Source of the DNA: Chloroflexota bacterium
GTDB taxonomy: Bacteria > Chloroflexota > UBA6077 > FW602-bin22
Direction of reading: 5' to 3'
Length of the DNA stretch: 64,000 nt
Assembly (NCBI GenBank): GCA_035651675.1
Contig: DASRFH010000111.1
Location: 9,605 to 73,604, forward strand
Shown piece after piece: positions 44,822-49,475 of this stretch. Both the position numbers and the translations under genes were made by a program. Each line of letters starts with the position of its first letter. Positions within the stretch are counted from its first letter, which is position 1. The notes beneath the pieces are model-generated. The model was given only the letters and a program-made list of their open reading frames with translations, had not been told where the DNA came from and did no database searches.

Positions 44822-45247
44822 CGCTGCTTCCCACCCGACCACTGGCTGCGCCCGTACAGGCCCGCGACCACCCGAGGCGGGGCCTGCGACCTTGGCCTGC
44901 GCAGAGATTCGCACTCCGACGGGCGGTTCTGCCGACCGGACGTCGCGGCTGTTCACCGCTCGCGCCTGGCGGCATTGTAGGTCGTCCTGCCGCTGCTGAC
45001 CAAGGCCTCCGGGGGGTGTTCCGCGGCCCCGCTCGCTGGTCGGTTTTCTCCCGCGTGCCCGAATTCCGACCTGCGCTGGCGTTCATACAAACAGCACCCC
45101 TCGCACGCCACCGGTCGCGGGGCGGCGCGGCGGCACGCCCCCAAGGAGGCGCGGATTGTCGAGCCGCGGCCATTGGCGCGGGTCGGCGTGTTCGCGGCGG
45201 ACTGGCCACTCGCGTGGCCGTACATCGGAAAGCACAGGAGGCACAAG

Positions 45248-47333: not shown

Positions 47334-49475
47334 ATGGCTGAACAAACGTCGTCGATTACGCTCAGGGTGCGGGCGACCCTTCTCGGTGTCGAAGCTGGCC
47401 AGAGCCCGCCGCGGGCCGTCGCGTACGCGTTCTCTTCGGGCGGCAGCCTGCTCGCTCAGGCGCCCCTCGACGAGAAGGGTGAGGCGACGCTGACCCTGCC
47501 TGCCGCTCGGACCCCCCAGATGGTCCGGGTCATGGTTGGCCCCGAGCCGCGCCAGGAACGGCCAGCCATCGCGGAGCTCACGCGCCTCGGCGCCAAAGAA
47601 GCGCACCTGCGCATCGAGCCCGGCGATCCTAGTCCCTCTGCCGAATTCCAGATCTACCCCGAGATCTGGCGTTGCTGGATCCTGCGGCTCTGCCTCGTCC
47701 GCGGCACGCTGCTGAGGCGAGTCGTCAGCGGTGGCATTCCCACCGACCTCCCCGTCTGCAACGCGACCGTGTCGATCTACGACGTCGAGCCGCTGTGGAT
47801 CATCCTCAGTCGGCTCCCCGACCACGTCATCGAGCTCATCCGAGACGGCCTCCTCAACCCGCTGCCCCCACCGCCGCCGCCGCCCGACGAGCGGTTCGGG
47901 CCGTCCCCCGTGATGGCCAGCGCCCGCCAGATCTCCGCGATGGACACCGGTCTGGTCGCCGGTGGAGCGGCGATGCAGAGCGTCGCGTCCGCCGCCGCGG
48001 CGCGTGCCGCCGGGTCAGCGCTTGGCGACCTCGCGCTCCTGGCACGCAACTCGAACACGGCGCAGCTCCGGCAGAGCCTGGCCAGCCTGGTCGCGGCCTC
48101 GCCCGTTGCCTCGTCCGCGATCGCGCACCTGCTGTGCTGGTTCTACCCGCCCTTCGTGACGACGCGGCTGCTCGCGACGGTCGAGACGGACGACTGCGGC
48201 CACTTCGAGGCGGTCGTTTTCCGGAGCTGCGTCGACCCTGACGTCTTGAACCTGTACTTCCGCGCGACGCAGCTGCTGTTCGGGTTCTTCCCGGTCACCA
48301 TCTACGCGCCCACCCCGATCGGCTGCTTCACCCACTGGAACTACCAGTGCGGCACCGAGGTGACGCTGTACACAACCAGCCCATTCGCCGTGACCTGCCC
48401 ACCCTGCCCACCTGTGGTGGCCGCGGACGACTACGTCATCGTGTACGGCATCGGGCGCGTGTCCATGCACCTGATTCGCGGCGCGAGCGCGGCCCTCCAG
48501 CCGACGACCGACGCCTCCAACATCGGGTTGACCGCCGCGGGTGAGCCGTTCGGCGGGGTCATGCGCCCTCGGCTCGACTTCGACAACCGGCTCCGCGACA
48601 ACCTCGGCGTCCTGTACTACCGGGTGTCGTACCGTAAGGGCACGAGTGGCCCGTTCACCCCTATGACCGGCGAGGTCCACCGCCACTACAAGCACGTCGT
48701 CGGCGGCTCGGTCGTGGTCGAGGCGTACTCGCTCGGGCCACGGGTCGTGAACGGCGTGCCGAACCTGTTCGAGATCCCACCGGCTGCCCCGCCGGTCGGC
48801 ACCTGGAGCATCCCGGATCCGGTCGAGGACACCGCCAACGCGAAGTTCGAATCGGGTGCGCCGGGCTTCCTCGGGTCGCCGTCGGCCGCAGCCGAGCAGG
48901 GGAAGTACCAGGTCAAGATCGATCTGTTCGACGCGAGCGGTGCGAAAGTGGACATCGGCGCGCTGGGGATCCACTACGTCGTGCCGAACGTCGACGACCT
49001 ATCGGCGCCGACCGCGATCACGACGGACGAGGCCGCGCCGCTGGGGCTGGTCTTCGACGCCGACGGCGACGGTAAGAACAGCTTCGTGATGACGCTGCAC
49101 GTCGACAACCAGGTGTGCAGCGGGACCCTGAACCCACCCACGCTTGGCGCCGCCACCGCCGACGCGTGCGGCGTCCTCAACTACAGCTCGGACGGCGACA
49201 CCGTGACGATCACCTACTCGGCCAGCCATCCGAACGGGTTCGCGACGCACGCGTTCAGGTTGTCGCGCGGTGTGACGCTGCTGCTAACCGAGGGGGGTGG
49301 GACAGGGACCTTCACCGTCACCCGGACGGTCGGAGAGCTGCGCAGCGGGTGCCCCGTGGCGGGGTTCGCGGAAGACCTGTACGTGGCGGCGATGGCGACC
49401 GACGGCTGGAGCCGCCTGAGCCAGTACGACGCGCACCCACCGCCCATCGCCTTCGTCCTCGCCCCGGCCTCGTAG
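47334..49475 (+). CDS. Large hypothetical protein 2 (713 aa): beta-sandwich N-terminus, poly-Pro linker, Cys/aromatic-rich core, DADGDG-containing C-terminal beta-rich region
   Basis: GGAGG at 47322-47326, with GTG 47331 and ATG 47334 as possible starts. No signal peptide or TM segment. Features: ITLRVRATLLGVEAG..., PLPPPPPPPDERF, CWFYPPF...CGHFEAVVFRSC...CFTHWNYQCG...TCPPCPP, and LVFDADGDGKNSFVMTLHVDNQVC. No family recognised. Confidence 0.75.
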   Translation: MAEQTSSITLRVRATLLGVEAGQSPPRAVAYAFSSGGSLLAQAPLDEKGEATLTLPAARTPQMVRVMVGPEPRQERPAIAELTRLGAKEAHLRIEPGDPSPSAEFQIYPEIWRCWILRLCLVRGTLLRRVVSGGIPTDLPVCNATVSIYDVEPLWIILSRLPDHVIELIRDGLLNPLPPPPPPPDERFGPSPVMASARQISAMDTGLVAGGAAMQSVASAAAARAAGSALGDLALLARNSNTAQLRQSLASLVAASPVASSAIAHLLCWFYPPFVTTRLLATVETDDCGHFEAVVFRSCVDPDVLNLYFRATQLLFGFFPVTIYAPTPIGCFTHWNYQCGTEVTLYTTSPFAVTCPPCPPVVAADDYVIVYGIGRVSMHLIRGASAALQPTTDASNIGLTAAGEPFGGVMRPRLDFDNRLRDNLGVLYYRVSYRKGTSGPFTPMTGEVHRHYKHVVGGSVVVEAYSLGPRVVNGVPNLFEIPPAAPPVGTWSIPDPVEDTANAKFESGAPGFLGSPSAAAEQGKYQVKIDLFDASGAKVDIGALGIHYVVPNVDDLSAPTAITTDEAAPLGLVFDADGDGKNSFVMTLHVDNQVCSGTLNPPTLGAATADACGVLNYSSDGDTVTITYSASHPNGFATHAFRLSRGVTLLLTEGGGTGTFTVTRTVGELRSGCPVAGFAEDLYVAAMATDGWSRLSQYDAHPPPIAFVLAPAS

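Follow-up and report, generated by a model that had tools for sequence, protein, structure and literature searches.

We analyzed a stretch of 64,000 nucleotides from the metagenome-assembled genome of an uncultured Chloroflexota bacterium (contig DASRFH010000111.1, positions 9,605 to 73,604), hereafter called the window, in which two large genes lie beside a tRNA-Trp gene. The first gene (45248..47128, + strand) is an open reading frame (ORF) of 626 codons plus stop, and its product, here protein 1, is deposited at NCBI as a 'hypothetical protein' (HZQ99260.1). The second (47334..49475, + strand) has 713 codons plus stop and encodes protein 2, deposited as an 'Ig-like domain-containing protein' (HZQ99261.1). 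A Shine-Dalgarno sequence can be read in front of each: CAGGAGG (45235..45241, +), 6 nt 5′ of the ATG of protein 1, and GGAGG (47322-47326, +), 7 nt 5′ of the ATG of protein 2 and within the 205-nt spacer that separates the genes (47129..47333, +). The tRNA-Trp (CCA) gene, which is the sole Rfam match between 40 and 52 kb, follows on the − strand (49602..49677), placing both ORFs on its 3′ side. A preliminary description, made from the sequence alone, had reported this layout, the two co-directional ORFs with their consensus Shine-Dalgarno sequences and the position at the tRNA correctly; it took the two genes for an orphan two-gene module. On balance, our analysis moderately favors another explanation, namely that they are independent, stand-alone accessory genes, each from a family of its own and with proposed roles in membrane action and binding, that have become chance neighbors in a lineage-variable slot.

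High-GC DNA yields many long spurious ORFs, and the likelihood that these two are chance open frames rather than genes is close to nil. Hundreds of full-length homologues are under purifying selection, GC content at the third codon position (GC3) is 0.90 in both genes and is accompanied by a coding-type pattern at the first and second positions (GC1 and GC2), the Shine-Dalgarno sites match the consensus, and the structures are predicted with confidence. The results on homologues and structures refute the chance reading. Upstream start codons that might hide a signal peptide were also considered and rejected. An in-frame GTG precedes protein 2 at 47331 and is itself immediately preceded by a TGA stop, so that a longer N-terminus is impossible. 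For protein 1, initiation at a TTG at 45173 would add 25 residues, but these read as not signal-like, and the N-termini of the homologues are hydrophilic. The GC content had been described as lower than in the flanks. It is indeed slightly lower (67.5% in protein 1 and 69.3% in protein 2, against a window mean of 70.9%), but both values lie inside the range of the window, 63-79% per kb, and the GC3 is native (window, 0.897 ± 0.042 over 39 coding-like ORFs). The lower GC therefore reflects amino-acid composition rather than foreign codon usage, and composition lends no support to the recent acquisition that had been suggested.

Neither protein could be placed in a known family, in agreement with the preliminary description. 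Searches of Pfam, NCBIfam, PADLOC and PHROGs at E ≤ 1 gave no match apart from noise for either protein (zero families in the case of the PADLOC-DB defense models), and neither single-sequence nor profile searches matched any PDB sequence. The word orphan is not appropriate if it means without relatives, because both proteins have hundreds of homologues. In a word-indexed protein database, protein 1 has at least 374 full-length homologues with 54-80% identity. An exhaustive profile search at E ≤ 1e-3 retrieved 431 representative clusters at 50% identity, 187 of them with E ≤ 1e-30, from at least seven phyla; carriers include Sphaerobacter, Sulfuriferula, Bryobacteraceae, Intrasporangium oryzae, Verrucomicrobiae, Gaiellaceae, Croceibacterium selenioxidans, Thiobacillus, Burkholderiales and Chloroflexia. 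Among 185,579 species representatives, a scan by pattern yielded 17 protein 1 loci, a number that is a lower bound. Protein 2 has at least 180 homologues in the protein database, with 41-57% identity, and at least 229 confirmed metagenome loci, and is carried by Binatia, Acidobacteriota, Cyanobacteria, Proteobacteria, Myxococcota and Bathyarchaeia. Homology between the two families was rejected (hhalign probability 0.2). Relatives of both were absent from the viral contigs of IMG/VR, and the idea of a phage or viral structural protein was dropped on this ground, together with the lack of a PHROGs match and the best match of the protein 1 model in BFVD (E = 2.1e-3; template modeling (TM) score 0.08), which was not meaningful. 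A literature lead on fern insecticidal proteins proved irrelevant. The two proteins represent two separate undescribed families, both widespread and patchy in distribution.

The central claim of the preliminary description, that the two genes form a module or system, did not hold, as the two families do not co-occur in loci of other species, an outcome that the description itself had named as speaking against it. A tblastn search with protein 2 against 19 loci of protein 1 homologues gave zero matches. Among 111 loci, 80 of which came from metagenomes searched with the protein 2 profile, the two genes were present together only in five (L027-L029, L032 and L034), all of which are at least 99% identical to the window and hence belong to the same species. 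With 2.5 kb or more of sequence upstream, about 46 independent loci of protein 2 lack protein 1; about 14 independent loci of protein 1, each extending 2.5 kb or more downstream, lack protein 2. In the locus of the nearest protein 2 relative (L033, 80% identical), DNA similarity to the window starts at 47310, 24 nt before the start codon of protein 2, and the 263 bp available upstream hold no C-terminus of protein 1. The nearest homologues of protein 1 (78%) stand alone among metabolic genes, and the protein 2 homologues of Binatia and Bathyarchaeia likewise stand alone in unrelated housekeeping contexts. In the protein database, the best non-self homologue is 78-80% identical for protein 1 versus 55-57% for protein 2, and this unequal divergence indicates that the two proteins have different histories.

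All-against-all clustering of the flanking ORFs revealed no conserved neighbor for either protein. Several candidate partners were examined and set aside: an M3 oligopeptidase and UPF0149 next to protein 2 reflect ordinary lineage synteny, as does DUF3455 next to protein 1 in Bryobacteraceae; a pairing of protein 1 with an extracytoplasmic function (ECF) sigma factor and a Ser/Thr kinase occurs at only three loci; and a colicin-like model with an immunity gene finds no conserved small membrane-protein neighbor. The three ECF loci (L005:3010-6335, L007:6032-9555 and L013:17026-20411) belong to two Bryobacteraceae and one Verrucomicrobiae, and in each of them a sigma factor (PF07638) and a kinase with tetratricopeptide repeats lie near the protein 1 homologue, in L007 immediately upstream and on the same strand. 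This arrangement may reflect regulation or chance; pairs of ECF sigma factor and Ser/Thr kinase are abundant in the phyla concerned.

Some protein 2 homologues have neighbors of another kind. At four independent loci (L035:12216-13547, +; L052:6410-7822, −; L065:1-1389, −; L081:8384-9889, +) they directly adjoin, in varying orientation, a gene of a third family that we call f3. Its products are unannotated, leaderless, Cys-rich proteins of about 430-445 residues that have no Pfam match and are absent from the window and from the protein 1 loci; they carry an N-terminal CCPVL..CDVLDFRYR motif, a Ser-rich middle part and a C-terminal region with GCLDDC.TCEP, a coiled coil and YRCCP. In 10 of 80 loci, the gene that comes directly after the protein 2 homologue encodes a small membrane protein of the DUF1360 type; of two examples, L044:4758-5372 passes the Pfam cut-off (E = 3.5e-5) and L065:3328-3945 falls just below it (E = 1.3e-3). 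After the protein 2 homologue of L033, on the opposite strand, lies a remnant of an rve-type (DDE integrase) transposase (2388-3007), the only trace of a mobile element seen beside either family.

We then compared the region between the histidine phosphatase gene and tRNA-Trp with that of relatives, as the preliminary description had proposed. Five relatives (L112-L116), whose RecN is 70-74% identical, retain the order TlyA-RecN-NUDIX-hyp240, and on the opposite flank L113 retains His-phosphatase-DksA-sigma70 as well. All five lack protein 1, protein 2 and three small upstream ORFs. These small ORFs, all on the − strand, encode 308 residues (43129-44052), 118 residues (44169-44522) and 84 residues (44570-44821); none has a Pfam match, the first product has an N-terminal hydrophobic segment and the second has multiple transmembrane segments. 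Together with the genes for proteins 1 and 2 they make up a lineage-specific block (43129..49475) between the His-phosphatase gene and tRNA-Trp/TlyA. In L113 the corresponding slot, about 2.7 kb long (L113:3196-5900, compared with 43085-49747 of the window), contains a PRC-barrel gene along with short ORFs, and tRNA-Trp is inverted relative to the window. The tRNA lies beside TlyA in three of the five relatives; in L115 and L116 it is missing from this position. In this lineage the surroundings of tRNA-Trp are a hot spot of rearrangement, and since relatives share the flanks and differ in the small genes between them, 43129-49475 is a lineage-variable slot.

Although presence and absence are polymorphic, the features of a genomic island integrated at the tRNA were not found: there is no integrase or recombinase between 42 and 50 kb, no att-like direct repeat of the tRNA 3′ end (only short repeats at chance level) and no deviant composition. 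Protein 1 shares 68-70% identity with homologues in Sulfuriferula (Betaproteobacteria) and Sphaerobacter, whereas RecN of the window organism is only 55% identical to a Thermomicrobiales RecN, a difference that argues for horizontal spread of protein 1. The simplest interpretation is that each gene entered a flexible site in an event of its own and that both have ameliorated completely since then. As for other signals in this region, a scan of the 205-nt spacer for E. coli-type promoters and terminators found none, a result that says little for Chloroflexota, and the Rfam scan of 40-52 kb detected no riboswitch or noncoding RNA besides the tRNA. A near-consensus sigma-70-type promoter (TTGACC, 18 nt, TATAAT; 11 of 12 matches) lies 5′ of tRNA-Trp at 49690-49719 (−), and a predicted GC-rich hairpin that separates the end of protein 2 from the tRNA (about 49569-49592) could terminate transcription of both.

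We next modeled both proteins with AlphaFold2 (AF2). The model of protein 1 (predicted local distance difference test score (pLDDT) 81.6; predicted TM score (pTM) 0.81) divides into six parts, all encoded on the + strand. Residues 1-57 (45248..45418) form a hydrophilic, Cys-rich N-terminal module that is modeled with low confidence; it has nine Cys, not the ten previously counted, and bears the family motif C-x-[IV]-[DN]-I-x-I-x3-G-D-V-N-I-Y-N-C. Residues 70-177 (45455..45778) are predicted as a six-helix domain with a pLDDT of about 90. A small disulfide-rich beta module followed by an immunoglobulin (Ig)-like sandwich occupies residues 206-380 (45863..46387), with near-invariant C256 and C265 and the covarying pairs C208-C331 and C236-C249. 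Residues 386-475 (46403..46672) constitute the first half of a C-terminal beta-sandwich; they carry the invariant motifs R-x-E-T-x-P...G-S-D-E-x-G-L and E-I-D-S, and EETSPAWLGSDEVGL, quoted in the preliminary description, is indeed present at residue 397. Residues 478-548 (46679..46891) make a helical excursion that ends in a Gly/Ala-rich hydrophobic hairpin, and residues 549-626 (46892..47125), with an invariant Y-x-E-x-R-x-Y...S-x-Y motif, supply the strands that complete the sandwich. In the model, the excursion projects from this C-terminal beta-sandwich (386-475 plus 549-624). The hydrophobicity of the hairpin (Kyte-Doolittle mean over 19 residues, KD19) reaches its maximum of 2.53 at residues 523-541, and an invariant W-A-P-A-D motif follows.

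A Foldseek search with the AF2 models had also been suggested beforehand; for both proteins it returned generic Ig-like or macroglobulin-type (MG) arrays only. With protein 1, the best PDB match had E = 1.7e-3 and TM scores did not exceed 0.12, a generic Ig-like likeness. Two domain assignments made by eye did not survive: neither the IPT/TIG-like sandwich (PF01833) nor the PLAT-type domain (PF01477) gave a Pfam match at E ≤ 1, the former being generic Ig-like at the fold level and the latter having no PLAT or lipoxygenase structure among the top 50 Foldseek matches. A GH16-like reading of the invariant E-I-D-S motif was also discarded, as the third catalytic Glu is not conserved and Pfam GH16 does not match. 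The proposal of a membrane-active effector with a hydrophobic glycine-zipper hairpin stood in part. The conserved Gly/Ala-rich helical hairpin makes membrane activity plausible, but the copy in the window has only a partial zipper, with the spacings G504-A508-G512 and G528-x7-G536. The Pfam Gly-zipper families do not match the window protein, and its relative P0319 reaches 18.3 bits against a cut-off of 25. Canonical glycine-zipper runs, for example GGPVGGLIGGAIGEAI, are found in many relatives.

The N-termini of protein 1 relatives differ in a manner that bears on where the protein acts. Signal-type N-termini, recognized by N-terminal hydrophobicity or a twin-arginine translocation (Tat) motif, occur in 20 of 69 aligned full-length sequences, or in 14 of 67 representatives with a stricter cut-off. 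Lipoprotein signals are present in P0308, P0326, P0328, P0344, P0354 and P0391 and Tat signals in P0287 and P0307; in P0322 a Sec signal, an NHL/SBBP propeller and a dockerin-like segment precede the protein 1 core, and P0335 has N-terminal transmembrane helices and a tail resembling FlgD-Ig and type IX secretion system (T9SS) domains. In part of the family, such signals (or other domains) thus replace the Cys-rich module at the same position, whereas the clade of the window protein has a hydrophilic N-terminus and is leaderless. Other N-terminal fusions to the core are collagen triple-helix repeats (PF01391) in P0038 and a YmaF domain in P0300. Signal-bearing and leaderless groups alike have a mean of 3.1 Cys pairs. 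The hairpin, by contrast, is less hydrophobic in the signal-bearing members (median KD19 1.94 vs 2.45; one-sided Mann-Whitney p = 4e-4), many of which have a canonical glycine zipper. The signals and this shift indicate that the core works outside the cytoplasm in part of the family. We infer that the hairpin behaves as a membrane-embedding element whose hydrophobicity is relaxed when another targeting device is present. One homologue stands in a different setting: in Intrasporangium oryzae (AWSA01000066.1, L001:1782-9272) it lies beside genes for GmrSD_C/Excalibur, SNF2-family helicase and AAA_25 proteins, a neighborhood that resembles a defense or mobile island.

The model of protein 2 (pLDDT 86.5) begins with beta-sandwich domains at residues 7-151 (47352..47786, +). 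These are followed by a Pro-rich, disordered linker of variable length at residues 175-219 (47856..47990, +), whose Pro run is seven long rather than eight as stated before, by three predicted helices, and by a large beta-rich core at residues 277-711 (48162..49466, +), mostly with pLDDT > 90, in which Cys, Trp and Tyr residues are conserved. The DADGDG loop that had been singled out as a possible calcium site is present at residues 575-580, but it is not a conserved feature: it is an insertion whose position is indel-variable, and most homologues lack it. Foldseek against PDB recovered generic strings of Ig, MG and fibronectin type III (FN3) domains with E down to 1.4e-7 and probability up to 1.0; TM scores were at most 0.18 and sequence identities 6-11%. 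In protein 2 and its 118 gene-called homologues, a median of 10 residues precedes the first strand and there is no hydrophobic N-terminus; an export signal was found in none of the 118.

Two specific identities for protein 2 were examined and rejected. A thioester protein of the alpha-2-macroglobulin (A2M)/complement type would have a CGEQ motif; protein 2 has CGTE at C339, a TM score of at most 0.13 to such structures and no Pfam A2M match. C339 moreover covaries with C120 as a disulfide partner would, which argues against a thioester. A Zn(Cys)4 site formed by C331-x7-C339-x15-C355-x2-C358 had a weak Zn_ribbon_19 match (E = 0.27), but C339 and C355 covary independently with C120 and C142, respectively, which fits disulfides better. 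Gly, Pro, Cys and aromatic residues make up most of the invariant positions. As few invariant positions are polar, protein 2 is most likely a binding or scaffold protein rather than an enzyme.

To return to the cysteines, both proteins had been described as Cys-rich, beta-rich and lacking a signal peptide, and all three attributes were supported. We examined Cys pairs in alignments of 69 full-length relatives of protein 1 and 196 relatives of protein 2. In protein 1, C57 and C126 were both present in 42 sequences, singly in 3 and both absent in 18 (phi 0.89); the corresponding numbers were 44, 1 and 22 for C208-C331 (phi 0.97) and 62, 0 and 3 for C236-C249 (phi 1.0), whereas cross-pairs were uncorrelated (phi about −0.1). 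C236 and C249 are exact cross-strand partners in a predicted hairpin of strands 234-241 and 244-251. In protein 2, the pairs C114-C299 (phi 0.96), C120-C339 (phi 1.0) and C142-C355 (phi 1.0) are mutually independent and join the N-terminal domain to the core. Parsimony on neighbor-joining trees, with gaps scored as absence, gave about 9, 6 and 7 independent events for the three pairs of protein 1 and about 8, 1 and 3 for those of protein 2. Independent pairwise covariation of this kind points to disulfides rather than to a multi-Cys metal site, and the alignments indicate that both families carry a predicted-disulfide signature. Covarying Cys pairs and the leaderless state contradict each other in both families.

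From these observations we propose the following roles. The hairpin of protein 1 would embed in a membrane and probably drive oligomerization by helix-helix packing, while the disulfide-stabilized Ig-like and sandwich domains would bind a target. Some members of the family export the same core by secretion, as a lipoprotein or through Tat; the clade of the window protein may instead reach an oxidizing milieu by lysis or by an unrecognized route, or act from the cytoplasmic side. Protein 2 would be a leaderless array of beta-sandwiches stapled by at least three inter-domain disulfides and serve as a binding or scaffold protein. For protein 1 we tentatively favor a membrane-active role that is antagonistic or protective, rather than a core structural function, because the genes stand alone, their distribution is patchy and horizontal, no immunity-like neighbor is present and the family occurs in monoderms.

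Several points weigh against two unrelated neighbors with these roles. That two rare families should lie adjacent, co-directional and 205 nt apart is an unlikely coincidence under random placement, and adjacency elsewhere was judged within flanks of at most 10 kb. Both proteins are leaderless, have the disulfide signature and are rich in beta-sandwiches, an unusual combination to share, and protein 2 homologues adjoin f3, itself Cys-rich, in four other lineages, which hints at a loose functional guild. Among the Cys pairs, only the C236-C249 hairpin had its register checked against the model, the disulfides being otherwise predicted from alignments; a leaderless protein with structural disulfides is without an established route to an oxidizing compartment common to bacteria and archaea; and membrane insertion and extracytoplasmic action are roles that we infer. 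The shared features might be explained by a lineage-specific functional pair under one promoter, with protein 1 as a membrane-active effector and protein 2 as its binding or delivery partner, perhaps as one example of a loose guild that joins protein 2 to various Cys-rich partners. The pair is stable in all contigs of the species, no terminator was detected between the co-directional genes, and the f3 and DUF1360 neighbors (4 independent loci and 10 of 80 loci) would suit such a guild, but the promoter and terminator scan relied on the E. coli-type consensus, with little meaning for Chloroflexota, about 80% of protein 2 loci have neither neighbor, and f3 varies in orientation. Given also that no locus of another species has both genes and that the families diverge unequally from their nearest relatives, we regard a functional pair as unlikely. 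A broader version of this idea, to which we assign a distinctly small likelihood, would make proteins 1, 2 and f3 a guild of leaderless, disulfide-bonded beta-sandwich proteins that stay inactive in the cytoplasm until they are released by lysis, ingestion by a predator or an unrecognized export step shared by bacteria and archaea. Protein 1 would then found a new class of pore-formers, with a glycine-zipper hairpin in a beta-sandwich, and protein 2 an exchangeable target-binding companion.

Two further explanations concern protein 1 by itself. It might be a cytoplasmic, single-gene abortive-infection or defense effector, with a sensor region coupled to a membrane-disrupting hairpin by which the infected cell is killed, and protein 2 an unrelated neighbor in a defense island. 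Its stand-alone, leaderless and horizontally spread state, its strongly hydrophobic hairpin, the variability of the slot among relatives and the GmrSD-type, SNF2 helicase and AAA_25 genes beside the Intrasporangium oryzae homologue would all fit, and the absence of both families from viral contigs is neutral. However, PADLOC and PHROGs do not match, most contexts consist of metabolic housekeeping genes, the covarying Cys pairs argue for disulfides and hence for a non-cytoplasmic state, and about one quarter of the relatives are exported by Sec, lipoprotein or Tat signals, so that we consider a defense effector very unlikely. Alternatively, protein 1 might stabilize the envelope of its producer or form part of its surface, anchored by the hairpin, by analogy with SlyB and YfgH, glycine-zipper lipoproteins described as stabilizing the outer membrane under stress (bioRxiv 10.64898/2025.12.22.696046, 10.64898/2026.06.08.730324). 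The lipoprotein variants do combine a glycine-zipper-like hairpin with an adjacent beta domain, and the lower hydrophobicity of the hairpin in members with a lipid anchor or signal would be expected if the hairpin were the anchor of the leaderless forms. Such a form would, however, face the cytoplasm, in conflict with the disulfide signature; the window protein has no match to the Pfam glycine-zipper models, which its best relative also fails to reach; the distribution is patchy and horizontal rather than lineage-core; and the family occurs in monoderms (Actinomycetota and Chloroflexota), which have no outer membrane. An envelope role of this kind therefore seems improbable. We accordingly retain, with modest confidence, the explanation by two independent accessory genes in a variable slot.

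This explanation does not describe a new multi-gene system; the novelty lies in two sizeable families that have neither a Pfam or NCBIfam model nor a solved relative. Disulfide covariation combined with missing signal peptides, in both families, falls outside the standard picture of how structural disulfides form in prokaryotic proteins. The protein 1 family amounts to a natural experiment, in which the same core carries a Sec, lipoprotein or Tat signal or the Cys-rich module, and the hydrophobicity of the hairpin shifts accordingly. Cultured carriers, Intrasporangium oryzae NRRL B-24470 and Croceibacterium selenioxidans LX-88, make localization and function directly testable. Should protein 1 permeabilize membranes, it would add a new architecture to the repertoire of pore-formers; otherwise, two new families of domains of unknown function are described.

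Comparison with known systems places both proteins near, and not within, several established types. Protein 2 resembles multi-domain Ig and MG arrays, such as the MG domains of A2M and complement, the extenders of RTX adhesins and FN3 strings, in being a string of beta-sandwich domains, and arrays of this sort are its best Foldseek matches. Unlike the A2M and RTX arrays, it has no thioester motif, signal peptide, type I secretion system (T1SS) or RTX repeats, and its DADGDG loop is not conserved. Like SlyB and YfgH, protein 1 has a glycine-zipper-like hairpin next to a beta-rich domain, and several protein 1 relatives are lipoproteins as they are. SlyB and YfgH are, however, proteins of about 15-20 kDa in the outer membrane of diderms, whereas protein 1 has 626 residues with four further domains, is mostly leaderless, occurs in monoderms and matches no Pfam model.

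The pore domain of colicins and domain I of Cry toxins are, like protein 1, leaderless and insert a hydrophobic helical hairpin, as protein 1 would; in Cry toxins beta-sandwich receptor-binding domains accompany the hairpin, much as beta-sandwiches do in protein 1. Unlike in these toxins, no helical bundle buries the hairpin of protein 1; in the model, about four helices project from the beta-sandwich. Protein 1 also differs from them in having no Pfam endotoxin or colicin match, no fold match and no immunity gene. A further parallel is offered by EsxX and other glycine-zipper toxins on LXG carriers of the type VII secretion system (T7SS) (PMC12744356, PMC12955049). In these toxins the zipper forms a small C-terminal domain, secretion is by T7SS and an immunity gene lies adjacent, whereas protein 1 has no LXG domain, T7SS context or conserved immunity-like neighbor, and its hairpin is inserted in a large, predicted disulfide-bonded beta-sandwich protein, with no sequence homology detected. 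What they have in common with protein 1 is a short hairpin of hydrophobic, Gly/Ala-rich helices, which is the membrane-active part of the toxins and the putative one of protein 1. EsxX of S. aureus, a membrane-depolarizing toxin, is reported to be toxic from both the cytoplasmic and the extracellular side (PMC12744356), and this two-sided toxicity parallels the protein 1 family, with its leaderless and its exported members.

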